Positions 358-56,165 of a stretch of DNA of 64,000 nt are shown here, piece after piece. The stretch comes from Gammaproteobacteria bacterium (GTDB taxonomy: Bacteria; Pseudomonadota; Gammaproteobacteria; Eutrophobiales; Eutrophobiaceae): NCBI GenBank assembly GCA_965202915.1, contig OZ241847.1, positions 1,665,972 to 1,729,971 on the forward strand, read 5' to 3'. Position 1 is the stretch's first letter; each line of letters begins with the position of its first letter. The notes under the pieces were generated by a model. That model saw nothing but the letters and a program-made list of their open reading frames with translations. It had not been told where the DNA came from and searched no databases. The position numbers and the translations under genes were made by a program.

Positions 358-867
358 ATGAAAATTATCGTCCAATACGAGGACAACGAGGTACTTACTG
401 CCTTGAACCGCTTGCTTGCCGCCGGGCGCAATTTAAACCCTCTTATGAAGATTATCGCCAGTCACTTGGAAGATACCATCGAGGAAGCCTTCAAGACCGA
501 GACATCACCCGAAGGCAAAAAATGGCAAGCCCTCAGCGAGGTTACCAAGGATCATCGCGCCAAACAGAAAAAACGGACGGGTGAAATTCTCCAACTCAGT
601 GGCGAACTCGCCCGCAGCATCGTATCCCGCCACGACGCCACCAGTGCTATCGCTGGCACCAACATCAAATACGCCACCACCCACCAATTTGGCGCTAAAA
701 AGGGCGAGTTTGGCAGATTCTCAATAATCAAAACGCGGCAAGTAGTACCTATTCCCTGGGGTGATATTCCAGCCCGGCCGTTTCTCGGTGTCTCCAAACA
801 AACCCGGGTACAAATCAACAACGCGGTCCGCCGCCACATCAAAACTGCTTTTTCACCTCATGGATAA
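358..867 (+). CDS. Phage virion morphogenesis protein (Mu gpG / P2 S-like tail-completion family).
   Basis: 169 aa. RBS GGAGA precedes the ATG. The C-terminal motifs ...GTNIKYATTHQFGAKKG... and ...IPARPFLGVS... are typical of the phage virion morphogenesis family. It is isolated, with an AT-rich flank at 868-1100. Confidence 0.55.
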   Translation: MKIIVQYEDNEVLTALNRLLAAGRNLNPLMKIIASHLEDTIEEAFKTETSPEGKKWQALSEVTKDHRAKQKKRTGEILQLSGELARSIVSRHDATSAIAGTNIKYATTHQFGAKKGEFGRFSIIKTRQVVPIPWGDIPARPFLGVSKQTRVQINNAVRRHIKTAFSPHG

Positions 868-1124
868 GAACTAGCTCTCTTGCCAAGTTTTAATCATAAT
901 TTACCGCCCTGATCAACAACGATTAAAACTCGATTAAAAAACGATTATTATAACCATTATTCCACTAATTTTTCATCAATAATCGGTTAAAAAGTACAAT
1001 TTCAAATGTTAATTCCCTCTATTTTTCAATCCAAGAAACCATCAACGATTCAAAAACTTACCCCCCACACGCCCCTAACTGCAAATTCCCATTCTAAACA
1101 TCCCCCTACATTGACGGCCTGTCG

Positions 1125-2132
1125 GTGCTTGTGACGTTGGATTTGGGTGGCAACGCCTTCACCACGCTACCCGCCGGTGTCTTTGACGGCCTGTCGGCGC
1201 TTGAGGATTTGCGTTTGAATGACAGCGCCTTCACCACTCTGCCCGCTGATGTCTTTGACGGCCTGTCGGCGCTTGAGACCTTGGATTTGATTAGAAACGA
1301 CTTCACCACTCTGCCCGACGGCGTGTTTGACGACGTGCTGGACACCTTGGGCGCCATAGGCGAAGACTCGATCGCGAGCTTCCGTGTTGACGACACCGTC
1401 CGCAACGCCCATTTTGTCTGCTCGCGGGCGGACGCCGATGCCATTGTAGCCGCCACCGCCGGTGTGACCGACTGCCTGCGGATCACCACCGCGCAACTCG
1501 TCGCCGCTCTCTCGAATGCCGGCCTGAGTACGCTGACGATTTCCCAAGGCACACTGACGCCGGTGTTTGATCCCGCCACCTTCACTTACAGTGCCATGGT
1601 GCCCAATACCGTGACCACCCTCACCCTCACCCCCACGGCCGCCGGCAGTGGCGCAACCGTAGCCGTGACAGTGAACGCGGGAGCGGCGATCCCCAACCTC
1701 CCATTCACCGCCGCCCTCAACGTCGGCGCCAACGACATAGCAATCGTCGTTACCGCCGCGAACCCCATCACGCAGACCTACAGACTGACCGTAACCCGCG
1801 CCCTTCCGCTGGACCTGAATCAAGACCAGACCGTCAACGCCCAGGATGCCCAGATCCTGTATTATCTCTCGCTGACGCCCCGGCCCGACAACCTGCTGAA
1901 CACACTGCTGGGGAACGCCGAAAATATTGCCGCACTGGAGGCCGGAGCCGATGCCCTGGCGGGCGCAAACCGGTTCGACCTGGTCGGTAATGATGGCCTG
2001 AACCAGAATGACTGGCGGCTGCTGTACTATGCCCTGCGGTTTGAGGATGAGCTGAGTGCCAGCCCGGCACTGCAAGATGCGCTGGGGGTGACGGAGGCGA
2101 CTCTGCGTGCCGTGCGGTTGCTTATTGAATGA
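1125..2132 (+). CDS. Modular surface protein: leucine-rich repeats, a cadherin-like beta-sandwich and a C-terminal dockerin-like double repeat. Probably 5'-truncated.
   Basis: LRR-type repeats (FTTLPxGVFDGLSALExL) run from residue 1, and the repeat frame stays open upstream to a stop at 1095 without a convincing start. The mid region (GTLTPVFDPATFTYSAMVPNTVTTLTLTPTA...IAIVVTAANPITQTYRLTVTR) matches the Cadherin-like (PF12733) pattern. The C-terminus carries two D-x-N-x-D...LYY dockerin-like segments that are homologous to the N-terminus of the 36091..39123 protein. Confidence 0.55.
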   Translation: MLVTLDLGGNAFTTLPAGVFDGLSALEDLRLNDSAFTTLPADVFDGLSALETLDLIRNDFTTLPDGVFDDVLDTLGAIGEDSIASFRVDDTVRNAHFVCSRADADAIVAATAGVTDCLRITTAQLVAALSNAGLSTLTISQGTLTPVFDPATFTYSAMVPNTVTTLTLTPTAAGSGATVAVTVNAGAAIPNLPFTAALNVGANDIAIVVTAANPITQTYRLTVTRALPLDLNQDQTVNAQDAQILYYLSLTPRPDNLLNTLLGNAENIAALEAGADALAGANRFDLVGNDGLNQNDWRLLYYALRFEDELSASPALQDALGVTEATLRAVRLLIE

Positions 2133-2800
2133 CAGGAGTCGGGGTCTCCCGACCCCGATAAAACACACAATCGGCACGCCGGATTCTCTGTACAGGAGTC
2201 GGGGTCTCCCGACCCCGATAAAACACACAATCGGCACGCCGGATTCCCTGTACAGGATGACGGGTTTTCAACCCGTAGGCGGGTTTGGAAACCCACCCTC
2301 CTGTTTAAAACACACAATCGGCACGCCGGATTCTCTGTACAGGAGGACGGGTTTCCAAACCCGTCATAAATCATTCAACTTTTAATGTGTTTTTTTTTAT
2401 AGGAGTCGGGGTCTCCCGACCCCGATAAAACACACACTCGGCACGCCGGATTCTCTGTACAGGAGGACGGGTTTTCAACCCGTAGGCGGGTTTGGAAACC
2501 CACCCTCCTGTTTAAAACACACACCCGGCACGCCGGATTCCCTGAGCAACCGGGGTTTTCCAATCCGTCTTAAATCATTCAACTTTTAATGTGTTTTTTT
2601 TTAGGCGGGTTTGGAAACCCACCCTCCTGTTTAAAACACACACCCGGCGCGTCGGATTCTCTGAGCGACCGGTATTTCTGGACTGCATCGGGGCTTTTAA
2701 ATATAATGAAACAAGAGGTGGACGGGTTTTCAAATCCGTCTTTAATCATTCAACTTTTAATGTGTTTTTTTTAGGCGGGTTTGGAAACCCACCCTCCTGT
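2133..2800. repeat. Mosaic hairpin-repeat array (BIME/REP-like) in the intergenic region upstream of tkt.
   Basis: Six copies of a ~40-bp core (taaaacacacaNNcggcRcgYcggattcYctg). Each is flanked by short hairpin modules (caggag+tcggggtc-tccc-gaccccga; gacgggttttcaacccgt; gggtttggaaaccc) in both orientations. A 38-bp module (aaatcattcaacttttaatgtgttttttttt) occurs three times. Confidence 0.85.
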
Positions 2801-8228: not shown

Positions 8229-8957
8229 ATGCTGAACAGGGGCAAAATAATGAGCAAACGCGGGGCTTACGGCGTGAACGAGGCCGTCGATTATAATGCG
8301 ATAAGCAGTGTTTGGACCGGCACGGATGCCGCGCTGCTTACGGAAATGCTGGATTTCTATCCGGTCATCGACACCGAGCCGATCCTGGATGCCACCTATA
8401 ACACGGGCCGCATGTGGCGGGGAACGGGCCGTAACCCTGTGTCCATGGACATCGACCCGCGGTACGCCCCCGATATTGTGGCGGACAACCGCGTTATGGC
8501 GGGCGTCCGGGACAATTCCTACGCAGTCGTGGTGTACGATCCGCCGCACGTCGGGCCGCAGGGCCGAGATAAGAGCAAAAAGCGCTTCGATGTGGACTTC
8601 GGCGCGACCATGGCTTGCGGAAAGGAGCACGGATGGAGCCTGAGCTACCTGTATCCGCCGTTCCTGGAGCAGGCCAGGCGCGTCCTCAAGCCGGATGGCA
8701 TTCTGCTCGCCAAGATCACCGACATTGTGAACAACCATCGCCAGCGCTGGGCGCACTGCGACTTCATAGCGATGGCCGGGAATGCCGGGTTCGTGGTCTG
8801 CGATCTGATTGTGAAAGTGCGAAAAGGGCCGATGAAGTCCACCAAATGGAAAAATGCTCAGCATGCCCGCAAGCGTCATTGTTTCTGGATCGTATGCCGC
8901 AACGGGCCATACAGCGAACGCAGGCTGAGTACCGGGGCCGATGTTGCGGTCGTATAA
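8229..8957 (+). CDS. Putative DNA amino-methyltransferase (N6-adenine/N4-cytosine type, DPPH variant of the DPPY motif).
   Basis: 242 aa. VVVYDPPH (motif IV-like) is preceded by a Gly-rich motif I-like segment. Its end overlaps the downstream GIY-YIG nuclease gene by 17 bp, as in R-M operons. Confidence 0.5.
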   Translation: MLNRGKIMSKRGAYGVNEAVDYNAISSVWTGTDAALLTEMLDFYPVIDTEPILDATYNTGRMWRGTGRNPVSMDIDPRYAPDIVADNRVMAGVRDNSYAVVVYDPPHVGPQGRDKSKKRFDVDFGATMACGKEHGWSLSYLYPPFLEQARRVLKPDGILLAKITDIVNNHRQRWAHCDFIAMAGNAGFVVCDLIVKVRKGPMKSTKWKNAQHARKRHCFWIVCRNGPYSERRLSTGADVAVV

Positions 8958-9474
8958 CCCACTCAGCATCGATGAACTGGGCCGGAACGCCGTGCGTGCC
9001 CTGATGGCCTACGACGTCGCCGAACTGCCACCCGGCGATCCGTTCCAGGGCGCAGGCGTCTATACGATCCACTACGCTGGGTCGTTTGCGCCATATGCAG
9101 GACTGGGTGAGACGCCGATCTATGTCGGCAGGGCAGACAATGACCTGCATGGCCGGCTGTCGGAGCACGCAGCGTCCATTGAAGCCGCAGAGAATCTGCG
9201 CCGCGATGAGTTCGGCTGCCGCTGGCTCGTGCTCGAACCGATCTGGATCAATCTGACCGAGAAAATCCTGATCGACCGGTACCGCCCCATCTGGAACAAG
9301 GTGCTGATAGGGTTCGGCATCCATGATCCGGGCGGTGGACGGCGCAATCAGCGTCGCTCCCAATGGGACACCGTGCATCCGGGAAGATCATGGTCGGCAA
9401 AGCAGCGCGAACCAGAGGAACCAGCCGGGCAACTGCTGGAACGAATCACACAGCATCGACGGCAAGAGCAATGA
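8941..9474 (+). CDS. GIY-YIG family nuclease, candidate type II restriction endonuclease (Eco29kI-like).
   Basis: 177 aa. GVYTIHY...PIYVGRADNDLHGRLSEH followed by conserved E and N residues gives the GIY-YIG catalytic pattern (Y, Y, R, H, E, N). It is translationally coupled to the upstream MTase. Confidence 0.5.
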   Translation: MLRSYNPLSIDELGRNAVRALMAYDVAELPPGDPFQGAGVYTIHYAGSFAPYAGLGETPIYVGRADNDLHGRLSEHAASIEAAENLRRDEFGCRWLVLEPIWINLTEKILIDRYRPIWNKVLIGFGIHDPGGGRRNQRRSQWDTVHPGRSWSAKQREPEEPAGQLLERITQHRRQEQ

Positions 9475-33085: not shown

Positions 33086-33426
33086 ACGGCGGTTGCGTCG
33101 GAAGACGACCCTTGCCAGGCGGTGAATCTGCACATCCTATGACCACTTGCACACCGCCTATAACCACGAACATCGTAAAGCACGGCACAAAGGCGTATAT
33201 GAATGGAATGGCTCACACAAACGGCATTGAGAGTGTCTGGGCGATGCTGAAAAGAGGGATTTACGGCACCTATCACCATGTCAGCAAAAAGCACCTTAAC
33301 CGCTATATTGACGAGTTCATATTCCATTTGAATGAGGGAAACGTCAATGTCTTGCTGGTAAGCCGTATCGCTTCGTTGAGTTGTATGAGCGCAGGCATGC
33401 CCTATAAGCCACTGCTCAGGGGATGA
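33082..33426 (+). mobile_element. IS1595-family (ISXO2-like) transposase C-terminal remnant.
   Basis: ...HTNGIESVWAMLKRGIYGTYHHVSKKHLNRYIDEFIFHLNEGNV... matches the C-terminal DDE-region tail of IS1595-family transposases. The N-terminal ~250 aa are absent, and the fragment abuts the parC stop codon. Confidence 0.65.
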
Positions 33427-34343
33427 GCACAATGCCAAGTCTCAATGCTATTGCGGCTAGTTGTTCAAAGTCCATATTCCAGTCACGCATTATCACCGGC
33501 GATGTTCTGAAAACACTGAAAAACCAGCCCTTTAATCTGAAGTTTGATGTAGTAATTGCCGACCCGCCGTATAACATTGGCAAGGATTTTGGGAACAACA
33601 ACGATAGCCTACCTATTGACGATTATGTCGACTGGTGCAACCAATGGCTAGAGCAATGCTTTCGCCTGTTGACCGATAATGGATTGGTCTATGTGTACGG
33701 GTTCCACGAGGTTTTAGCGCGTATTGCAGTAAATTATCCGGTGGATGAGCAACGCTGGCTGGCGTGGCATTACACTAACAAAGCAGTGCCATCCTCAAAG
33801 TTCTGGCAACGATCCCACGAGGCAATCCTGTGCCTGTGGAAACCGGGGACCAAGCGGCCAATATTGGAAATTGACCAAATCCGAGAACCATACACACCCA
33901 ATTTCCTCAAATGTGCTGGCAGGGAGAGAAACGACACAAAGGGCAGGTACAGCAAAAAAGGAAAAAAGACAATTTACAACGACAACGGCGGCGCACTTCC
34001 TCGTGATGTAATTGATATACCTGCATTAGCTGGCGGTGCTGGTCGGGTGGAGCGGTGGTTTTCATGCCGGGAATGTGGCGGAGAGGTGAGGCCGCCTAGT
34101 GAATTGGCAAATCATGCTGGCCACAGCATACTCAAACATCCTACTCAAAAACCAATGGAGTTGACTAGGCGGCTGATATTGTCCCGAATCAACGGCCGGC
34201 AGGGCCGCACCTTGATACCCTTCACAGGGTCAGGCTCCGAGTGTGTAGTTGCAAAATCGCTTGGAGTCGAGTTTCTTGGCATTGAAATCAATCCTGAATA
34301 CGCTAAATTCGGGCGCAGTTGGTTAAAGCAATGTACCACTTGA
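33423..34343 (+). CDS. Site-specific DNA methyltransferase (N4/N6 amino-MTase, beta class).
   Basis: 306 aa. DPPY (VVIADPPYNIG) lies upstream of motif I (IPFTGSGSECVVA). The HPTQKP motif and a Cys-rich insert are present. Confidence 0.85.
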   Translation: MSTMPSLNAIAASCSKSIFQSRIITGDVLKTLKNQPFNLKFDVVIADPPYNIGKDFGNNNDSLPIDDYVDWCNQWLEQCFRLLTDNGLVYVYGFHEVLARIAVNYPVDEQRWLAWHYTNKAVPSSKFWQRSHEAILCLWKPGTKRPILEIDQIREPYTPNFLKCAGRERNDTKGRYSKKGKKTIYNDNGGALPRDVIDIPALAGGAGRVERWFSCRECGGEVRPPSELANHAGHSILKHPTQKPMELTRRLILSRINGRQGRTLIPFTGSGSECVVAKSLGVEFLGIEINPEYAKFGRSWLKQCTT

Positions 34344-34921
34344 CTCCGCGAATGACGCAACGGCTCAAAGCGGACCTGGCCAAATACCACGATCTGTTCA
34401 CAGGAAAACGATGCGAGAGTTGGGAATTGGAAGAGTTGATTGTTGCAGCAATCAAATCAGACACGCAGGCACAGCATCATGTTCGTTGGCAGGAAAAGGG
34501 GCATGATGATCTCGCCGATATTGTCGTGCGGACGAATGGATCACAGCATTCAATTCAAATCAAATCCGGGCAGATAAAAGCAGGCAAGTTGATATTGTCT
34601 GGCCACAGATTGGGCCGATTCAATGGCGTAATGGATGATATTGGCGCATACCTCAATACGCCGAGAGCAAATATCATGGCGGTTCCGCACAGATTGATAG
34701 ATGATAGCAAAGGGCGCCAGCATATTTATCGCGTATGCTATGTGGATATTAAGATAATGACTGGCCTTGAGACCAATAAATGGGAAAAGCGGGGCGCGCA
34801 ATATGTCCAAACAAACGCGGGAGGTGTAGAGTTCTCTTTGCGGCCGTCTATGAGTTGGCAAATCTGGTGGGCTATACCCGTAAGCCTAATTGAACAAACC
34901 GATGAGTTTGTTATCGGCTAG
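34319..34921 (+). CDS. Putative type II restriction endonuclease (PD-(D/E)XK-like), cognate to the upstream MTase.
   Basis: 200 aa overlapping the MTase by 25 bp. A candidate catalytic core HDDLADIVVR...SIQIKSG (D...D...QxK) is present. The assignment rests mainly on context. Confidence 0.45.
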   Translation: MVKAMYHLTPRMTQRLKADLAKYHDLFTGKRCESWELEELIVAAIKSDTQAQHHVRWQEKGHDDLADIVVRTNGSQHSIQIKSGQIKAGKLILSGHRLGRFNGVMDDIGAYLNTPRANIMAVPHRLIDDSKGRQHIYRVCYVDIKIMTGLETNKWEKRGAQYVQTNAGGVEFSLRPSMSWQIWWAIPVSLIEQTDEFVIG

Positions 34922-34991
34922 TTTGTTTATTTCAGGGTATAATTCCCTAATATAGCCTCTTTTCCAGCCCATCTATATTTTAAAGAAAAAA

Positions 34992-35554
34992 ATGACGACC
35001 TTCAGCACCAATCAATTCAAACCCGGCTTAAAGCTGATGATAGACGGCGAGCCGTGCTCGATTATTGAAACCGAATTTATTAAATCCGGCAAGAGACAGG
35101 CGTTCAACCGGGTGAAATTGCGCAACCTGAAAAATGGCCGGGTACTGGAAAAAACCTGGAATTCGGGTGACAGTGTCGCCGCCGCGGACGTGATGGAACT
35201 GGATATGCAGTATCGGACGGCGGTCTGTGGCATTTTATGGATCCAGATTCATATGAACAATACGCCGCCACCGCAACCGTGATGACCGACGTCAGTCCCT
35301 GGCTGAAAGGCGGCGAAGTATGCCTGGTCACACTCTGGAATGACTCACTTTTATCCGTGCTGCCGCCGAATTTCGTGATGCTGGCAATAGCCGAAACCGA
35401 TCCGGGGCTGGTGGGAGATACCGTATCATCCGGCACAAAGCCGGCAAAATTGGAAACCGGCGCGATGATAAAAGTGCCGCTGTTTATTGACACCGGTGAA
35501 ATTGTCAAAATAGACACCCGCACCGGTGAATACGTTGGCCGCAGCAAATCCTAG
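34992..35554 (+). CDS. efp: Elongation factor P. Its frame is interrupted by an apparent 1-nt deletion near 35211-35216 (ORFs 34992..35282 and 35237..35554).
   Basis: The N-terminal part [46 protein letters not shown]...MQY and, in the -1 frame, [16 protein letters not shown]...[27 protein letters not shown] align collinearly with E. coli EF-P. The junction is TAT-CGG versus an expected TATTCG. Confidence 0.85.
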
Positions 35555-35624: not shown

Positions 35625-35741
35625 TTCAATGATTGGCCCGATAGGTGATTTACGGGGCTATTTCGGGACCATTTCGTTTTTGGTTAAGATTTTGGTTAAG
35701 ATATTACCCCTTACAACGCTTAGGATATACAGGAGCTTCAG

Positions 35742-36032
35742 ATGGGCAGCAAGGCAAAATTCAAGGGCGGCTTATTGCGCCCGGTATCGCTGACGACCGG
35801 GTTGCCGGTGCTCGGTGCCTTTGGCAGCAACCGGATTTACCGCAGCACTGAGCAAACCGACGCCGAGATCGACCCCGGAGCCGGGCTTATTTTGTCGCCG
35901 GACGCAACGACTGGATTGCCGGGGCAAGTTGAGGCGCTTATCCTGTCGGCAAACCCGGCCTCTGGTCCGCTGAGTTTTACCCCCCCCCCCCCCCCTCAAT
36001 CCCAAGCCAGGCCTAGCGTCACAGGCATATAG
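35742..36032 (+). CDS. 5' segment (96 codons) of the FG-GAP repeat protein gene, terminated by a frame shift at the poly-C tract.
   Basis: A good promoter and RBS sit upstream. The ORF runs into the C16 tract (coding TPPPPP) and stops 36 nt later. The downstream 1010-codon frame is open from 35974 through the same tract. Confidence 0.6.
   Translation: MGSKAKFKGGLLRPVSLTTGLPVLGAFGSNRIYRSTEQTDAEIDPGAGLILSPDATTGLPGQVEALILSANPASGPLSFTPPPPPQSQARPSVTGI
35980..35995 (+). repeat. Homopolymeric poly-C tract (16 nt) inside the coding region, a candidate slipped-strand phase-variation switch.
   Basis: C16 read directly from the sequence. C15 or C18 would fuse 35742..36032 with 36091..39123 into one ~1,126-codon ORF. 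Confidence 0.9.
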
Positions 36033-36090
36033 CCCCTCCGGGCACCTGGCCCTGTCCGCCAGTCTGCCGTACCTGCCGGCCGCGCAGTCG

Positions 36091-39000
36091 GTGGCACCAC
36101 CACCGCCGGTGACCCCGGCAAACCCGTTACCCCCGGCGTCCGCGCTTATCGACCAACAATCGCAGGCCTTTGAGCCGCTTGCACTGCACGCCACCGCAAC
36201 CGGGCCACAGCGGCCCGAAGTCGCATTTCAGACCGGCGCTGTATCCCTGGTCTCTCTGAACCTGAACCAACAGCAGGGTATAGAGGCGCAAGACGCACAA
36301 ATACTGTATTACGTCGCCCTGTCGCCGGCCAATTTGACGACCCTGCTGGACAATCTGAGGGGAACCGACGCCGAGGCGGATCTTATAACCCGTGCGAATG
36401 CCTGGCTGAACCAGGACCTGGGCCTGAGCACCCTGCCCGATCTGAACAATGACAATATCCTGAACCAGGAGGATGCACGCATCCTGTACTATGCCTATCG
36501 GTTTGGCGATCTGCTGCGCGTCAGTCCCAGCCTGCGCGAGGCAATACTGGGCGATCTGACCGACGAAGACGATAGTGCCGCCAATCCGGATGACGTATAT
36601 CGGGAGATACTGGACCGGACTGGGTTATTCAGGCCGTCGGTGATCGACCTGACCAGCCTTGGTGAGGCCGACGGCTTTATTATCCAGGGCGATGCGGCCA
36701 GGGACGGGGCGGGCGTGAGCGTATCCACTGTCGGCGACGTCAACGGCGACGGCTATGCCGATGTAATCGTCGGGGCGCGCGGTGGCGACGACGGTGGCAG
36801 GAATGCCGGCGAGGCCTACGTGGTATTTGGCAGGGCGGGCGCCTTTGGCAGCCTGGACGGCACCAACCGCCGGGTGATCGACCTGACCAGCCTTAGCGAG
36901 GCGGACGGTTTTATCATCCAGGGCTTGGGAGGCGACCAGGTGGGCGAGGGCATATCCGGCGCCGGCGACGTCAACGGCGACGGCTATGCCGACCTGATTG
37001 TTGGGGCGCACCTGGGTGACGACGGTGGCAGGAATGCCGGCGAGGCCTACGTGGTGTTTGGTAAGGCGGGCTTCTTTGGCAGCCTGGACGGCACCGACCG
37101 CCGGGTGATCGACCTGACCAGCCTTAGCGAGACGGACGGCTTTATTATCCAGGGCGACGCGGTCGGGGACCGTGCAGGCGAGCGCGTATCCGGCGCCGGG
37201 GACGTGAATGGCGACGGCTTTGCCGATCTGATCGTCGGGGCGCAGTCGGCCAACGACGGTGGTACCGATGCCGGCGAGGCCTACGTGGTGTTCGGCAGGG
37301 CGGGCCCCTTTGGCAGCTTGGACGGCACCAGCCGCCGGGTGATCGACCTGACCCGCCTTAGCGAGACGGACGGCTTTATTATCCAGGGCGACGCGGTCGG
37401 GGACCGTGCGGGCTGGAGCGTATCCGGCGCCGGGGACGTGAACGGTGACGGCTATGCCGACCTGATCGTCGGGGCGCTCTATGGCGACGACGGCGGGGAA
37501 AATGCCGGCGAGGCCTATGTCGTGTTCGGCAGAGCATCCGGCTTTGGCAGTGACGTCACCACCACAGTGGATGGGGAAGGCAGCTTCATCCGCCGGGTGA
37601 TCGACCTGACTGGTCTGAGCGAAGCCGATGGCTTTATCATCCAGGGCGATGAGGCCGGTGCCTATGCGGGCAATAGAGTTGGTGATACTGCGGGCTTTAG
37701 CGTATCCGGCGCCGGGGACGTGAACGGCGACGGCTATGCCGACCTGATTGTCGGGGCACGCCGGGGTGACGACGGTGACGACGTTGACGTCAATGCCGGC
37801 GAGGCCTACGTGGTGTTAGGCAAGGCGGGCGGCTTTGGTATTGACGTCACCACCACAGTTGAGAGGGAAGGCAGCTTCACCCGCCGGGTGATCGACCTGA
37901 CGAGCCTGGCCGCGGAGGACGGCTTTATCATCCAGGGCGATATGGCTGGGGACAATGCGGGCTTTAGCGTATCCACTGCCGGGGACTTCAACGGCGACGG
38001 CTTTGCCGACCTGATCGTCGGGGCACTTGGGGGCGACGACGGTGGGGAAAATGCCGGCGAGGCCTACGTGGTGTTCGGCAAGGCGGGCGGTTTTGGTATT
38101 GACGTCACCACCACAGTTGAGGGGGAAGGCAGCTTCACCCGCCGGGTGGTCGACCTGGATGGCCTGGTTGCAACGGACGGCTTTATTATCCAGGGTGATG
38201 CGCCTGGCGACTATGCGGGCTATAGCGTATCCGCTGCCGGCGATATAAACGGCGACGGCTATGCCGACCTGATCGTCGGAGCAATCAGGGGCGACGACGG
38301 TGACGACAGTGACATCAATGCCGGCGAGGCCTACGTGCTGTTCGGCGGCCTGGCCGCCGGCCTAAGTTCCGAGGCCACCGTATTACTCGGCACCGGCGGC
38401 AACGACGACCTCAACGTCGACGGCCGTGCCACGGTTGTACTCGCCGGCGCCGGCGATGACGTGCTGACCGTGGACGGCTTCACCAATACCGATCTGCTCA
38501 AATTCGATGGCGGCACCGGCACCGATACCCTGCGCTTCGCCAACCCCGACGCAGACACCGGCCTGAGCCTGGATTTAAGCACCCTCGCCGACACCCGCCT
38601 GAGCAGCATAGAGCGCATAGACCTCAGTGGCAGCGGCGACAATAGGCTAACCCTGATCCGTCTGGACCTGTTGAACCTGTCCGAGGCGCGCACTAATGGC
38701 CGCGCCGAGCTACGGGTCGACGGCAACGCCGGCGACCGCGTCAGCGCCACCGATACCGGCTGGACGCAGCAGGCTGATATCATCACCGACGACGGCATGT
38801 ACAGGGTCTTTGACAACGGCAATGCCCGCCTGCTGGTCAATATGGAGGTGGCGCTGGGCGACAATTTAATGGCGGCCAGCATGGCCAGCCGGGATGAGCT
38901 CCTGCAAAGCTGTTGCGGCACGCAGACCGTCGATATCCGCGCATTGCTGCAGGCCCTGCCGCCGCCGGACGAAGAGCAACAGCGCAGGATCATGGAAGAT

Positions 39001-39123
39001 GAATTGGCGATGTTGGGGCCGTCACCGGAGGCAAAGGCGGCGATGATGCCTGATGAACCCACGGCGGCACCGGAGACCGACCTGTTCGACCTGCCGCCGC
39101 TCATCCCGGATGATGGCATGTAG
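36091..39123 (+). CDS. Large FG-GAP (integrin-alpha-like beta-propeller) repeat protein with an N-terminal Pro-rich linker plus a dockerin-like module and a C-terminal Gly/Asp-rich region loosely reminiscent of RTX repeats. It is probably the distal part of the phase-variable gene starting at 35742.
   Basis: About 10 tandem ~72-aa repeats (RRVIDLTSLSEADGFIIQGD...GDVNGDGYADLIVGA...DGG.NAGEAYVVFG.AG.FG) match the FG-GAP consensus. The N-terminus carries a dockerin-like pair (LNLNQQQGIEAQDAQILYY..., DLNNDNILNQEDARILYYAYRF). The C-terminus has GGNDDLNVDG...AGAGDDVLTVDG...FDGGTGTDTLRF. Confidence 0.8.
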   Translation: MAPPPPVTPANPLPPASALIDQQSQAFEPLALHATATGPQRPEVAFQTGAVSLVSLNLNQQQGIEAQDAQILYYVALSPANLTTLLDNLRGTDAEADLITRANAWLNQDLGLSTLPDLNNDNILNQEDARILYYAYRFGDLLRVSPSLREAILGDLTDEDDSAANPDDVYREILDRTGLFRPSVIDLTSLGEADGFIIQGDAARDGAGVSVSTVGDVNGDGYADVIVGARGGDDGGRNAGEAYVVFGRAGAFGSLDGTNRRVIDLTSLSEADGFIIQGLGGDQVGEGISGAGDVNGDGYADLIVGAHLGDDGGRNAGEAYVVFGKAGFFGSLDGTDRRVIDLTSLSETDGFIIQGDAVGDRAGERVSGAGDVNGDGFADLIVGAQSANDGGTDAGEAYVVFGRAGPFGSLDGTSRRVIDLTRLSETDGFIIQGDAVGDRAGWSVSGAGDVNGDGYADLIVGALYGDDGGENAGEAYVVFGRASGFGSDVTTTVDGEGSFIRRVIDLTGLSEADGFIIQGDEAGAYAGNRVGDTAGFSVSGAGDVNGDGYADLIVGARRGDDGDDVDVNAGEAYVVLGKAGGFGIDVTTTVEREGSFTRRVIDLTSLAAEDGFIIQGDMAGDNAGFSVSTAGDFNGDGFADLIVGALGGDDGGENAGEAYVVFGKAGGFGIDVTTTVEGEGSFTRRVVDLDGLVATDGFIIQGDAPGDYAGYSVSAAGDINGDGYADLIVGAIRGDDGDDSDINAGEAYVLFGGLAAGLSSEATVLLGTGGNDDLNVDGRATVVLAGAGDDVLTVDGFTNTDLLKFDGGTGTDTLRFANPDADTGLSLDLSTLADTRLSSIERIDLSGSGDNRLTLIRLDLLNLSEARTNGRAELRVDGNAGDRVSATDTGWTQQADIITDDGMYRVFDNGNARLLVNMEVALGDNLMAASMASRDELLQSCCGTQTVDIRALLQALPPPDEEQQRRIMEDELAMLGPSPEAKAAMMPDEPTAAPETDLFDLPPLIPDDGM

Positions 39124-39131
39124 CCACCACC

Positions 39132-39424
39132 GGAGCCCGTGACTCCCGTCGCGGGTAAAACAACCCCCCCTGACAAGGGGGCAGGGGGGGTTCCCCCAAC
39201 ACCGGCACCTTACCCCAATCACCCCGGATTCCCAAACTGCACCGAGTCTTTGCCGAACAACACCAAACCACCCCAATTAACACCAAACCCCCCAACCCCC
39301 CTTGTCAGGGGGGCTACTGAGCGACACCGGCACCTTTCCCCCAACCAACACCGTGAGCGGGGCTGAGTTGCGGGTTGACGATAATGTTGATTGTTATATA
39401 CCCGCGACGGGAGTCACGGGCTCC
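39132..39424. mobile_element. MITE-like element copy A (293 bp) with 26-bp perfect terminal inverted repeats.
   Basis: ggagcccgtgactcccgtcgcgggta ... tacccgcgacgggagtcacgggctcc. The interior shares ~200 bp with copy B and carries C/G homopolymer hairpins. It begins 9 bp after the stop codon of the FG-GAP gene. Confidence 0.8.
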
Positions 39425-39580
39425 TGTGATGAGCGGTGCAGGCCTCTGCTGAACAATTTCATTTGATAACGGCGGGGCGTGGGTCTATACTGACTATATG
39501 AAAGATACGAGCATACCGGTAACACCCTGTGGCAAGTGGATGATAACTGTCGTCCCGTATAAATTATCCGGTACCTGAAT

Positions 39581-40027
39581 ATGGAAGCCATCGCATTTGA
39601 TACCCATAAATTTGTCAAGCACCTGACTGCATCGGGTTTCACCGAAGCGCAGGCGGAAGCCCTGGCCGGTGAGCAGGTCGATATGATTAACAGCAATCTG
39701 GCCACCAAGGCCGACATAGAGAAACTGCGCCTGGCCACCAAGGCCGACATAGAGAAACTGCGCCTGGCCACCAAGGCGGACATAGAGCAACTGCGCGCGG
39801 ACACCAGGGCGGACATTGCCGAGGTGAAGGCGGACATAGAGAAACTGCGCCTGGCCACCCAGGAGGACATAGAGAAACTGCGCCTGGCGACCCAGGCGAA
39901 CATAGAGCAACTGCGCGCGGACACCAGGGCGGACATTGCCAATACCGAATCAAGACTGACGCGCTGGATCGTTGGTGCGATGATTGCGCAGATCGGCGTG
40001 GTTGTCGGGTTGATTAAATTGAGTTGA
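39581..40027 (+). CDS. DUF1640-like coiled-coil protein with a C-terminal transmembrane helix and internal 11-aa tandem repeats.
   Basis: 148 aa. The N-terminus MEAIAFDTHKFVKHLTASGFTEAQAEALAG is followed by (LATKADIEKLR)n encoded by 33-nt tandem repeats (~39697-39950) and a C-terminal hydrophobic WIVGAMIAQIGVVVGLI. Confidence 0.6.
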   Translation: MEAIAFDTHKFVKHLTASGFTEAQAEALAGEQVDMINSNLATKADIEKLRLATKADIEKLRLATKADIEQLRADTRADIAEVKADIEKLRLATQEDIEKLRLATQANIEQLRADTRADIANTESRLTRWIVGAMIAQIGVVVGLIKLS

Positions 40028-40029
40028 CA

Positions 40030-40292
40030 GGAGCCCGTGACTCCCGTCGCGGGTAAAACCCACACCCAGCACGCCGGATTCCCCAACCCCCCCGGATTCC
40101 CAAACTGCACCGAGTCTTTGCCGAACAACACCAAACCACCCCAATTAACACCAAACCCCCCAACCCCCCTTGTCAGGGGGGCTACTGAGCGACGCCGGCA
40201 CCTTTCCCCCAACCAACACTGTGAGTCGTGCTGAGTTGCGGGTTGACGATAATGTTGATTGTTATATACCCGCGACGGGAGTCACGGGCTCC
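40030..40292. mobile_element. MITE-like element copy B (263 bp), same family and orientation as copy A.
   Basis: Identical TIRs. Its 5' module (caggag+hairpin+taaaacccacacccagcacgccggattcc) is homologous to the core unit of the 2133..2800 array. Confidence 0.8.
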
Positions 40293-40411
40293 TGTAACTA
40301 TAAGGCAACCGCCGGACAAAACCCGCCAGGCCGGATCTGCCGGGATCAAACAATATCTATTATGCTCGGCCTGCTTTACAATGTAAGCGATATGAACGGA
40401 ATGAGCCTGCA

Positions 40412-54498: not shown

Positions 54499-55398
54499 TT
54501 ACTGCTCTAAAACATCTTTCAACGTATCAATCTGCTGCTGATAGATTTCCGGCCTATCCCGCCTGAATTGCTCTAAGTTCGAGAGTTTCCATTTTACCGA
54601 TGGAAATTCCTGAAAATCATAAATCGACCAATCTGGCTCTAAACCATTAAGGCTTAGTAAAAACGCTCTATCATTTTCATTTAAACTCGTCTTTACCGTT
54701 TCGATTAATTGCAGTCTTGTGGCCTCATATTCATCGTAACTAAACTCAATCACGTTCATGCCTTCAAACTGATTTTCAAACGCCGTTCGCTGATCGATCA
54801 AATGAGGAACAAGCATTTCATGGGTCGGGCGATTACTGCTCACCAGACCCAAAATGAAGCCTTGCTTGATCTCATCGGTAAAGCCTTCATTATCCAGTAA
54901 CAGCTTTACATCAAATAAATCTCGTGGATGTTGCCTGTCCAGGGCAGCACATAACTTGCCACCATATAATTGCGCCAAGGGTACAAGCGGCATCGCACAA
55001 AACGCATCAAATTCCTCTTGAGCGGCTTCGCAAAGTGGCTTCTTATTGGAGTCACCCAGCAGGCCTCGCCCTACCATGTTTACTTCTATCTTGATGAGTA
55101 CACCGTGCTCATCCAGTTGTAATTTGCAAACCTTCTCTTTGTGTTGAACGCGTATTGACGAGCGCAACCCTTCGATACGATCTTTAATGCGAACAAGCGC
55201 CGCATTAATCCCATCAAGCGTTTCATTACGTTCAGCAATCTCGACATAGGTTAAATCGATATCAACCGACAGCCTTGGCATATCGCGCATAAAGAGATTG
55301 ATCGCCGTGCCGCCATGCATGGCAAAACATGCTTCTTTAGCTACTTCTGGCAACACATCCAAAAGCAGCCTGACCTGTTTTTTGCAGGCGTCATTCAT
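54499..55398 (-). CDS. AbiEii/AbiGii-family nucleotidyltransferase toxin (type IV TA / abortive infection).
   Basis: 299 aa. The N-terminal MHGGTAINLFMRDMPRLSVDIDLTY matches the DUF1814/AbiEii motif. Confidence 0.8.
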   Translation of the reverse strand: MNDACKKQVRLLLDVLPEVAKEACFAMHGGTAINLFMRDMPRLSVDIDLTYVEIAERNETLDGINAALVRIKDRIEGLRSSIRVQHKEKVCKLQLDEHGVLIKIEVNMVGRGLLGDSNKKPLCEAAQEEFDAFCAMPLVPLAQLYGGKLCAALDRQHPRDLFDVKLLLDNEGFTDEIKQGFILGLVSSNRPTHEMLVPHLIDQRTAFENQFEGMNVIEFSYDEYEATRLQLIETVKTSLNENDRAFLLSLNGLEPDWSIYDFQEFPSVKWKLSNLEQFRRDRPEIYQQQIDTLKDVLEQ

Positions 55399-56165
55399 GC
55401 CGCCGCCTCTAATTCCCTGGGAACGGTTATCTGGTATTTCGAGACATAGACGCCATCGCTCACGATGGCACGTTTACCTGAGCCCAAATCAACCTTATCC
55501 AGATTGATATAACCAAGCCATTCATGGCCTGCCTTATCTGCCAAATACAAAAACAGGCGCTTCACTTTGATAGAGGTGCAGGCTTCAAGTAATTTTTGTA
55601 CTGTTGCCGGCCGCAAATTATTCAAGCCTTGCATCAGCTCAAACACCTCGACAAGCGGCTGAGACTTGGGTGCCAAATATAAACATTCCATTACTGCACG
55701 AGCAGAGCCGGATATCTGCACCTTAAAACTTTTATGATCGATCTCGACCAAACCAAGATCAGGCGGCAAAAAGCTCGTCAGCTTACACTCTACGCTCAAG
55801 CCCCAATCCCGCTTTTTAAACCAAAGCGGCAAGCTCTCATCCTTACCACCAAAAAGCTGTGCCCTCTTTGTAGAAAGCTCCAAATAGTGGGATTTCCCCT
55901 GCAATGACAGTGCTGTTTTGCCCGCCGGATGCACATAGAGGCCGAGCTGAGACTGCAAAGCATAGATGCCCCCCAAATAGTCCACTTGATCACCATGGCG
56001 TATCAGAGCACCCGTGCCGATAGAATCAAACCACTGGCTTTTCTTGTACTGTTTTTGCAGATCGAGGCTATAGCCCTGTTCTGTCAACCATGCGGAAGAG
56101 AGCACTATGCCCGAAGGCTGAGTGCTAAGCAGAGTGTTTAATTTTGACTCTCTCTCGGTATTCAT
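55395..56165 (-). CDS. AbiEi-family antitoxin/transcriptional regulator.
   Basis: 256 aa. The N-terminal winged-HTH pattern LLSTQPSGIVLSSAWLTEQGYS...YKKSQWFDSIGTGALI is typical of AbiEi. It overlaps AbiEii by 4 bp. Confidence 0.7.
   Translation of the reverse strand: MNTERESKLNTLLSTQPSGIVLSSAWLTEQGYSLDLQKQYKKSQWFDSIGTGALIRHGDQVDYLGGIYALQSQLGLYVHPAGKTALSLQGKSHYLELSTKRAQLFGGKDESLPLWFKKRDWGLSVECKLTSFLPPDLGLVEIDHKSFKVQISGSARAVMECLYLAPKSQPLVEVFELMQGLNNLRPATVQKLLEACTSIKVKRLFLYLADKAGHEWLGYINLDKVDLGSGKRAIVSDGVYVSKYQITVPRELEAAA

Follow-up and report, generated by a model that had tools for sequence, protein, structure and literature searches.

The 64-kb stretch of gammaproteobacterial DNA analyzed here (contig OZ241847.1, 64,000 nucleotides; hereafter the window) carries two genes whose products share a two-segment calcium (Ca)-loop module. 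One is an FG-GAP gene, marked by a 1010-aa open reading frame (ORF) at 36091..39123, in which the module lies near the N-terminus, and the other is an ORF at 1125..2132 with leucine-rich repeat (LRR) and cadherin-like domains, in which it forms the extreme C-terminus. These two are the only copies of the module in the window, and all features of the two genes that are given coordinates below lie on the forward (+) strand. The analysis concerns the structure of the two genes, the relationship of the module to dockerins, and the possibility that the module is a tag by which exported proteins are docked to the cell surface.

A sequence-only reading of the window had treated 36091..39123 as the complete FG-GAP gene. 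The 1010-aa ORF is real, but it represents only the part of the gene 3' of a frameshift, the downstream 90% of a 3.38-kb gene (35742..39123) whose true start is the ATG at 35742. A Shine-Dalgarno-like AGGAG (35731..35735) can be read from the sequence 6 nt ahead of this ATG, and inspection found no AGGAG-like site ahead of GTG 36091 or GTG 36109. The leader frame, a 96-aa ORF (35742..36032) situated just 5' of the 1010-aa ORF in another frame, is matched by the first 35 residues (MTDKAKLKGL...VIGACNSNRIYR) of P0006, a 1180-aa member of the module family described below, and the window leader aligns with the N-termini of P0006, P0013, P0014, P0015, P0017 and P0022, such that it is conserved in seven proteins. 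By this leader alignment the true 5' end of the gene (35742..35979) encodes the conserved leader (MGSKAKFKGGLLRPVSLTTGLPVLGAFGSNRIYR) and the first part of a Pro-rich spacer, in a frame that, as assembled, differs from that of the main ORF.

Where the two frames overlap lies a stretch of 16 cytosines (C16; 35980..35995), which breaks the frame and is the longest homopolymer in the window, the next longest G or C run being G9. With 15 C or 18 C at the tract there is one continuous ORF (35742..39123) of 1126 or 1127 aa, and the 1126-aa protein obtained by deleting one C aligns through residues 1-1125 with residues 1-1180 of P0006 (57.7% identity, 1216 columns). A closely related metagenome contig (L001; ENA ERZ25068762) is identical across the whole gene, C16 included, and its gene call (1004 aa from GTG 36109, with the start written M) agrees with the 1010-aa ORF at 1003 of 1004 residues. 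Outside the gene the two contigs differ by 7 single-nucleotide polymorphisms (SNPs), two indels in efp and a 1.8-kb insertion. Exact database look-ups of the 1010-aa ORF and of P0006 returned no record.

From N- to C-terminus, the continuous protein is predicted to comprise a ~35-aa non-Sec-like leader, the Pro-rich spacer, the ~130-aa module, a propeller, an RTX block, a conserved beta-rich domain and an acidic tail. The Pfam FG-GAP model (PF01839) matches the 1010-aa ORF with E=1.9e-49 in 7 stretches, and FG-GAP_2 and FG-GAP_3 match as well. The Ca-binding FG-GAP propeller of the sequence-only reading is supported accordingly in kind, but not in its ~10 blades, as regular-expression counts give exactly seven occurrences each of GD[VFI]NGDG[YF]AD[VL]IVGA, AGEAYV[VL][FL]G and DGFIIQG, in units of 65-97 aa. 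The count of seven units is the basis for describing the domain as a seven-bladed propeller, which occupies 36670..38370 (ORF residues 194-760) according to Pfam, the motif counts and the matches to integrin alpha structures. The closest PDB sequences are the propellers of integrins alpha-V, alpha-IIb, alpha-4 and alpha-5 (~3e-8), and the motif GD[VFI]NGDG[YF]AD, a Ca motif of the DxNxDGxxD type, is found in 7/7 blades, all of which are predicted to bind Ca.

Beyond the propeller, a motif reading places a degenerate RTX-like block at 38389..38535, with three GGxGxDxLx-type nonapeptides (GTGGNDDLN, AGAGDDVLT and GGTGTDTLR, at residues 767-815) that are locally similar to the RTX regions of the PueAB (7e-5) and RTX_toxin (0.0027) models, at scores far below the whole-protein cutoffs. 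The RTX-like C-terminal region that had been proposed from the sequence is also apparent in homologues of the C-terminal cassette, which carry true PF00353 repeats at the same place and some of which are named 'Ca2+-binding RTX toxin-like protein' by their source. A conserved post-RTX domain (38536..38850; LSSIERIDLSG...ELRVDGNAGD...GW...NGNARLLVN) is defined by alignment with P0071, P0075, P0076, P0080, P0081, P0083 and P0089 and has no PDB or Pfam match; the cassette as a whole belongs to no Pfam, NCBIfam or PDB family. The protein closes with the expected acidic tail (38851..39123, ending ...DLFDLPPLIPDDGM and the stop codon), which is kept among the class A paralogues introduced below, P0006, P0013, P0014 and P0017 sharing its ending with the window protein. 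In all, the fused protein contains 177 acidic versus 66 basic residues and 2 Cys.

The module in the FG-GAP protein (copy 1; 36238..36630, ORF residues ~50-180) was delimited by comparison, alignment, Pfam and AlphaFold2 (AF2). It consists of two EF-hand-like loop-helix segments separated by a ~30-40-aa helical insert, in the order loop 1 and helix, insert, loop 2 and long helix, and terminal helix (DDVYREILDRTG). Ca-loop 2 (DLNNDNILNQED; 36439..36474) is canonical, with D1, N3, D5, N9 and D12, and Ca-loop 1 (NLNQQQGIEAQD; 36259..36294) is degenerate, with N1, N3, Q5, E9 and D12. Copy 2, at the extreme C-terminus of the LRR carrier (1797..2129; BLASTP/tblastn and alignment), has its loops at 1812..1847 (DLNQDQTVNAQD) and 1977..2012 (DLVGNDGLNQND). 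That the N-terminus of one protein and the C-terminus of the other share a two-segment module, as first noticed from the sequence alone, is confirmed by BLASTP (5e-17, 38% identity over 129 aa) and by tblastn between the two copies (43-44% identity over ~103 aa). Nor is the shared segment of low complexity, since EF-hand/dockerin-type Ca-loop positions are conserved in an alignment of 34 family sequences.

The consensus of this alignment, LDLNxDxxIxAQDAQILYY ... DLNxDGxxDxQDARILYYAxRFxDLL, describes an internal duplication into two segments, in both of which a 12-residue loop leads into an (A)(Q/R)ILYY helix; this is the tandem loop-helix arrangement of type I dockerins. In loop 1 the ligand positions are conserved as D1 in 25/34, N3 in 32/34, D5 in 30/34 and D12 in 34/34 sequences, and in loop 2 as D1 in 32/34, N3 in 28/34, D5 in 27/34, D/N9 in 32/34 and D12 in 34/34; on the strength of these positions the loops are predicted to bind Ca. 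Matches to Pfam Dockerin_1 (PF00404) at E<=1 are obtained for 30/34 family modules (best 2.1e-8), and relatives scored at full length (P0015, P0016, P0050, P0055, P0057 and one ORF of locus L084), at 24.5-26.7 bits, exceed the gathering threshold of 22.9 bits. In addition, five short family members already carry PF00404 in the precomputed Pfam annotation. A search of all PDB sequences with the family profile returned 25 chains at E<=10, of which 24 bear dockerins (best 2y3n_B, 1e-5; 4fl4_A, 3.9e-4; 1daq_A, 3.7e-3) and none is a calmodulin-type EF-hand protein; weak matches to EF-hand Pfam models do occur among the family modules.

The AF2 model made with the family alignment is confident (pLDDT, the predicted local distance difference test score, 84.3; pTM, the predicted template modelling score, 0.75) and has five helices over 118 residues; a single-sequence model (pLDDT 44) was discarded, and only the alignment-based model was used. 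Fold searches gave no significant match, and the compact, 60-70-aa three-helix dockerin fold is not reproduced. Most members have a further terminal helix, TDAxYRxLLRRAxxLR, which in the FG-GAP protein corresponds to DDVYREILDRTG. Our own reading of these data is that the module is probably of the dockerin type, either homologous to dockerins or built on the same duplicated loop-helix unit, and enlarged by the helical insert; under the present definition of PF00404, it falls outside that family.

The second carrier contains the LRR and cadherin-like domains ascribed to it from the sequence (LRR_8, 6.3e-20; Cadherin-like PF12733, 1.7e-18), but Pfam and homologue alignment indicate that the ORF at 1125..2132 is a 5'-truncated remnant of an LRR, cadherin-like and module gene. 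It corresponds to the C-terminal 335 aa of an 823-aa-type protein, with 80% identity to residues 492-823 of P0001, and also matches the last 341 residues of P0002. The ORF begins mid-LRR and has no signal peptide; homology starts abruptly at position 1110, after non-homologous 35.5%-GC DNA, and the 256 bp ahead of the start codon (869..1124) have this low GC content and are rich in stop codons. A neighboring ORF (358..867) has by eye the look of a Mu-type phage morphogenesis gene, and this ORF and the AT-rich DNA abutting the truncation point may reflect the event that removed the 5' part of the LRR gene. Directly 3' of the remnant, 2132..2800 is dense in short direct repeats (29-271 bp, 86-100% identical), which comparison of the two loci showed not to be common to the repeats 3' of the FG-GAP gene. 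Both module genes are also distinguished by composition, with a third-codon-position GC content (GC3) of 0.75-0.76 and an overall GC of 0.62-0.64, versus a GC3 of 0.48-0.65 in nine housekeeping genes of the window, which may point to a foreign origin or to a composition specific to the gene family.

A search of 1.84 billion cluster representatives with a profile of the two window copies identified a rare module family of 59 proteins at E<=1e-3, of which 25 also pass E<=1e-10 and 3 pass E<=1e-30. The expectation that one module would be carried by many different surface proteins is thereby met on a larger scale, as the 59 protein clusters have very different passenger domains, and at least six carriers (P0001, P0004, P0006, P0013, P0024 and a member of the P0012 cluster) are encoded on a single 2.49-Mb contig. 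A word-indexed homologue search yielded nothing with a single module and only 7 short proteins with the family alignment, and a scan of 185,579 GTDB species genomes and of JGI metagenomes with the motifs [QP]DAQILYY and LYY[AV][LYH]RF[EG][DE] gave no confirmed relative. The ParE protein encoded in the window shares no more than 73-74% identity with any GTDB representative, its top matches being uncultured Gammaproteobacteria and a Thiotrichaceae metagenome-assembled genome, which makes the host an uncultured gammaproteobacterium to which no sequenced representative is close.

Two architectural classes can be distinguished within the family. Class B, the majority, has a hydrophobic N-terminal signal peptide (peak Kyte-Doolittle hydropathy 2.4-3.7) and a module that ends 5-45 residues from the C-terminus; an extreme C-terminal module after an N-terminal signal peptide is found in ~45/59 clusters. 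Its passengers include LRR, Cadherin-like, GLUG and CARDB domains, peptidases M23 and M10, Trypsin_2 with PPC, P_proprotein, He_PIG and Big_9; Cadherin_3 and FG-GAP are also among the passenger domains of the family. Class A comprises the window FG-GAP gene, P0006, P0013, P0014 and P0017, together with the fragments P0015, P0019, P0022 and P0023. In this class a weakly hydrophobic leader (peak 1.5-2.1 on the same scale) is followed by a Pro-rich spacer of 120-150 aa, the module at residues ~160-295, arrays of cadherin and/or FG-GAP units, and a C-terminal cassette made up of the RTX-type block, the conserved domain and a tail ending DLFDLPPLIPDDG. Class A proteins reach 3623 aa among the representatives and more than 6000 aa in locus L087, and Cadherin_3, Cadherin or Big_9 arrays are present in P0014, P0015 and the L087 genes. 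For the N-terminal 165-181 aa of the window protein and P0013, neither Pfam nor NCBIfam gives a match at E<=10, and leader and spacer belong to no PDB family. A Sec or lipoprotein signal was considered for the leader and rejected as a general feature, in view of its low hydrophobicity and because the Cys of the IGAC sequence in P0006 and P0022 is not conserved.

Contig ctg147652 of ENA ERZ25068762 (L087, 1..20444; 5x coverage) carries tandem giant class A genes of >5387 and >6350 aa, which alternate Cadherin_3 and FG-GAP, and in addition an ORF of leader and module that is identical to P0022; numerous frameshifts, probably errors of low coverage, interrupt all of them. Module-only ORFs of 162-168 aa, devoid of a signal peptide, are found in L002 and L003 (10001..10507) in conserved synteny between pfkB and a queC-queE / ybgF-pal-tolB-tolA-tolR-tolQ cluster, and look like C-terminal remnants of GLUG-type proteins. 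In L084 (7850..8010), a 715-aa LRR ORF and a 165-aa module ORF (P0030) constitute one gene with a frame change near CCCCGGGGG, and this split structure is seen on three contigs of one sample.

The reading we favor, with a probability of roughly 0.55, is that the FG-GAP locus is a frameshifted gene for a ~1126-aa acidic, Ca-binding, RTX-type surface or secreted protein, and that the module docks this and the other carriers to a common surface receptor. The presence of the module on dozens of exported proteins suggests such a shared surface-docking system. Docking is what we infer from the placement of the module, which is always terminal or leader-proximal, in single copy and on unrelated passengers, a pattern more usual for docking and targeting tags than for structural inserts. 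According to this proposal, the module would fold upon Ca binding outside the cell and would then dock its carrier to a cell-surface receptor shared by all carriers. In the RTX-type class, the module is at the N-terminal end, which would be the last part to leave a type I secretion channel and hence the cell-proximal end; in the Sec-type class it would act from the extreme C-terminus, as in classical dockerin-bearing enzymes. The composition of the fused window protein (acidic, Cys-poor, with an RTX-type cassette) fits the profile of a type I secretion substrate, although, because the window contains no type I secretion genes, this export route is one that we infer. A more ambitious version, which we would entertain only tentatively, is a non-cellulosomal display system proper to this lineage, in which the enlarged ~130-aa module would tag dozens of exoproteins exported by two routes, Sec-dependent enzymes and LRR proteins being tagged C-terminally and giant RTX-type FG-GAP/cadherin adhesins at the N-terminal, cell-proximal end, for one receptor that is possibly not a cohesin, with G/C tracts switching individual members on and off.

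A number of observations weigh against the docking proposal. The cohesin-like partner anticipated by the sequence-only reading was found neither among the 30 other window ORFs scanned with Pfam nor in the related loci L002, L003 and L084-L087, and the same 30 ORFs include no other candidate receptor and no type I secretion ABC (ATP-binding cassette), MFP (membrane fusion protein) or TolC genes; with neither a partner nor secretion genes in the window, the display system is put forward conditionally. Dockerin identity, also suggested at the outset, holds as relatedness at the level of the family but not for the window copies taken singly, as that of the FG-GAP protein has no Dockerin_1 match at E<=1 and that of the LRR carrier scores 15.5 bits (E=0.021), below the cutoff. 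The link of the window copies to PF00404 is thus transitive only, through relatives that pass. Moreover, the Pfam and PDB matches span half-segments of ~17-20 aa rather than a contiguous dockerin, the loop-to-loop spacing is 55-60 residues versus ~31-33 in 1daq and 2mte, and loop 1 of the FG-GAP protein (NLNQQQGIEAQD) is the most degenerate of the family. The RTX character of this protein is limited to its three degenerate repeats, PF00353 being unmatched at E<=1. Variation in tract length, the defining sign of phase variation, is not seen, with 16 C in both the window and L001, and both carrier genes are disrupted in the assembly, so that possibly neither of them works in this genome.

Since the C16 tract leaves the leader and the downstream coding part in different frames, the locus may represent the OFF state of a slipped-strand phase switch, a homopolymer mis-sized alike in both assemblies, or a pseudogene or fixed frameshift. 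A long homopolymer in the 5' coding region whose length sets the frame is what a phase-variable contingency gene would have. The most durable competing account, a serious one to which we would still give clearly less than an even chance, is that the frame break is a homopolymer-length error of long-read assembly, and that the real gene, with 15 or 18 C, is intact, constitutively expressed and free of any phase switch. A one-base change does restore a full-length ORF colinear with P0006, the naming of the contigs points to long-read metagenome assembly, the length of a 16-nt homopolymer is difficult to determine, and the related low-coverage contig L087 is full of frameshifts. However, exactly 16 C are present in two contigs that differ elsewhere by SNPs, efp indels and the 1.8-kb insertion, the contig coverage is 58x, and the other differences between the window and L001 are not homopolymer errors. 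Also relevant is the distribution of Pro and Gly runs of at least five residues among the 59 family representatives, 4/6 of which are within the first 104 residues: P0014 has G9 in the same spacer, and P0024, P0025 and P0026 have P8, P5 and P8, respectively, ahead of their signal peptides. These runs near the 5' ends, including P8 versus P5 in two proteins related to each other, are an indirect hint of G/C tracts that recur and vary in length, which would argue against a mere sizing error; at the DNA level, G/C homopolymers of at least 8 are absent from L087 and L084-L086, and L002 has only an unrelated G12.

The docking function of the module has its own competitor, namely that the module is an intramolecular Ca-dependent folding or stability element, an EF-hand pair that would let large exoproteins fold only after reaching the Ca-rich exterior, with no docking involved. 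The Ca-loop residues are indeed the most conserved positions of the module, the rest of the window protein likewise consists of Ca-dependent units (FG-GAP and RTX), the window scans revealed no partner, and there are the weak EF-hand Pfam matches. We nevertheless consider this account unlikely, because the single-copy, terminal or leader-proximal placement on unrelated passengers is typical of targeting or docking tags, because conservation extends to the helix faces that follow the loops (ILYY, RF..LL), and because the PDB profile matches are to dockerins and not to EF-hand proteins.

A sorting or secretion signal that is read by its own export or processing machinery, in the manner of C-terminal sorting domains, would be in keeping with the extreme C-terminal module behind signal peptides in most clusters and with the restriction of the module to a lineage in which it occurs on many cargo types. 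It is nonetheless improbable, less likely than the folding element, since the same module sits near the N-terminus behind the leader in class A and inspection of the surrounding loci turned up no genes for such a machinery. Known C-terminal sorting domains are a beta-sandwich in the C-terminal domain (CTD) of the type IX secretion system (T9SS) and a transmembrane helix in PEP-CTERM and LPXTG proteins, unlike the helical Ca-binding domain described here.

Equally doubtful is a canonical LapA-type RTX adhesin whose N-terminal region, module included, is a retention module plugging a TolC-like pore: the overall polarity is shared, running from an N-terminal anchor end through a repetitive core to an RTX region and acidic tail at the C-terminus, and paralogues with cadherin/Ig extenders exceed 6000 aa, but retention modules fold without Ca (bioRxiv 10.1101/2025.09.30.679566) whereas this module is built on two Ca loops, neither NCBIfam nor Pfam has a family that matches the N-terminal 165-181 aa, the window protein lacks Ig-like extenders and has only its 3 degenerate RTX repeats, and the same module is also at the C-terminus of Sec-type proteins. 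A Ca-loop module would have to act after export, and for this reason the window protein is not classified as a LapA-type adhesin.

Returning to the docking proposal, one possible lead to a receptor is provided by the immediate neighborhood of the FG-GAP gene. Directly 3' of it, a CCDC90-like/DUF1640 coiled-coil ORF (39581..40027, + strand; PF07798, 4.4e-14) is internally repetitive (tandem ATKADIEKLRL units) and hydrophobic in a C-terminal segment, and in an unrelated locus (L084-L086) three DUF1640 ORFs are interleaved with module ORFs behind the split LRR gene. Its membership in the system is uncertain, as the ORF is flanked by 215-bp direct repeats (39213-39427 and 40081-40295, 96.7% identical) and may therefore simply be a repeated element.

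The 30 other scanned ORFs of the window are housekeeping, restriction-modification or toxin-antitoxin genes. Upstream of the FG-GAP gene, efp (elongation factor P; 34992..35554), intact at 186 aa in L001, is split into two ORFs in the window, the difference being a 9-bp insertion (35018-35026) and a 7-bp deletion (after 35215). The ~1.8 kb at 33129..34944, where L001 has 394 bp with an IS1595 Zn-ribbon ORF instead, encodes an N6_N4 DNA methylase (33423..34343, 5.2e-32) and a 200-aa ORF that falls in no family, and is possibly an inserted restriction-modification unit. Elsewhere, an Eco29kI-type restriction endonuclease (4.9e-44) and an adjacent ORF with a weak DNA methylase family match (20.0 bits versus a 26.7-bit cutoff) together occupy 8229..9474 amid housekeeping genes, and an AbiEi/AbiEii type IV toxin-antitoxin pair (54499..56165) likewise lies amid housekeeping genes.

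The docking of dockerins to cohesins is textbook knowledge for Gram-positive cellulosomes; to our knowledge, the roles of such pairs outside these assemblies are mostly unknown. What the present analysis adds is a divergent dockerin-type module reused on peptidases, LRR proteins and giant Ca-binding adhesins of a Gram-negative organism. If docking were true, it would offer an alternative to the LapA-type retention plug for holding type I-secreted adhesins on the cell, as well as a new orthogonal Ca-dependent protein-protein pair for engineering. Simple on/off control would be contributed by the C16 tract. None of the component kinds is new in itself, as FG-GAP propellers, RTX-type exoproteins, homopolymer phase switches and non-cellulosomal dockerin-like modules are known; new are the enlarged module family, for which no dedicated curated model exists, the occurrence of the module at both ends of proteins that apparently use different export routes, its position at the N-terminal end of RTX-type giants, and the C16 tract in the spacer. 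For the window itself, the gene model has been corrected (start 35742) and the second carrier shown to be a remnant.

Compared with type I dockerins (PF00404), the module shares the two duplicated DxNxDxxx[DN]xxD 12-residue loop and helix segments, the terminal position on many secreted proteins of one organism, and significant profile matches that are to dockerins only. Type I dockerins have 60-70 aa, and the module, at 105-135 aa, is about twice as long, with a 30-40-aa helical insert and an extra terminal helix (5 helices); it also has the ILYY and RF motifs, sits in a Gram-negative gammaproteobacterium and is sometimes placed near the N-terminus. Non-cellulosomal dockerin-like modules have been surveyed previously (Peer et al., 2009, as cited in PMC2930009).

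The minimum criteria and organization of RTX adhesins, including a Ca-independent retention module, have been set out recently (bioRxiv 10.1101/2025.09.30.679566). With adhesins of the LapA, MpIBP and FrhA type the window protein has in common a very acidic, Cys-poor composition, no Sec signal, Ca-dependent domains, a C-terminal RTX-type block and tail, giant cadherin/Ig-like paralogues and a probable N-terminal anchoring. It differs from them in that it has no recognizable retention module, its sole folded N-terminal unit being the Ca-loop module, in that no tandem Ig-like extenders are detected by Pfam, and in that its degenerate nonapeptides number only three, type I secretion genes are absent from the window and the putative anchor is a Ca-binding module of the dockerin type.

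With the propellers of integrin alpha and bacterial FG-GAP proteins (PF01839), the predicted propeller shares seven blades and DxNxDGxxD loops. In integrins, the Ca motif is found only in blades 4-7, whereas it is present in all seven blades of the window protein, which are 65-97 aa long with inserted loops in blades 4-6; the window protein is also bacterial and lacks thigh and calf domains. Homopolymeric G/C tracts are characteristic of phase-variable surface-protein genes in Neisseria, Haemophilus, Campylobacter and Bordetella. As in those genes, a long homopolymer (C16) in the 5' coding part sets the frame of the gene body through its length; in contrast to them, both assemblies have the same 16 C, the host is an uncultured environmental gammaproteobacterium, and a sequencing error is possible.

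The closest parallel in concept comes from Chlorobium chlorochromatii, for which a recent preprint has proposed cohesin-dockerin tethering of a type I-secreted RTX protein (bioRxiv 10.64898/2026.03.19.712371). The proposed pair consists of Cag_2037, which has an N-terminal cohesin and RTX repeats and is type I-secreted, and its neighbor Cag_2038, which has a C-terminal dockerin (bioRxiv 10.64898/2026.03.19.712371); the concept of surface tethering therefore has a Gram-negative precedent. By analogy, both cases would involve a Gram-negative, non-cellulosomal RTX exoprotein thought to be held at the surface via its N-terminal end. In the Chlorobium pair, the RTX protein bears the cohesin and its neighbor a canonical dockerin, whereas here the RTX-type protein itself bears a divergent dockerin-like module, and one that is spread over dozens of proteins.

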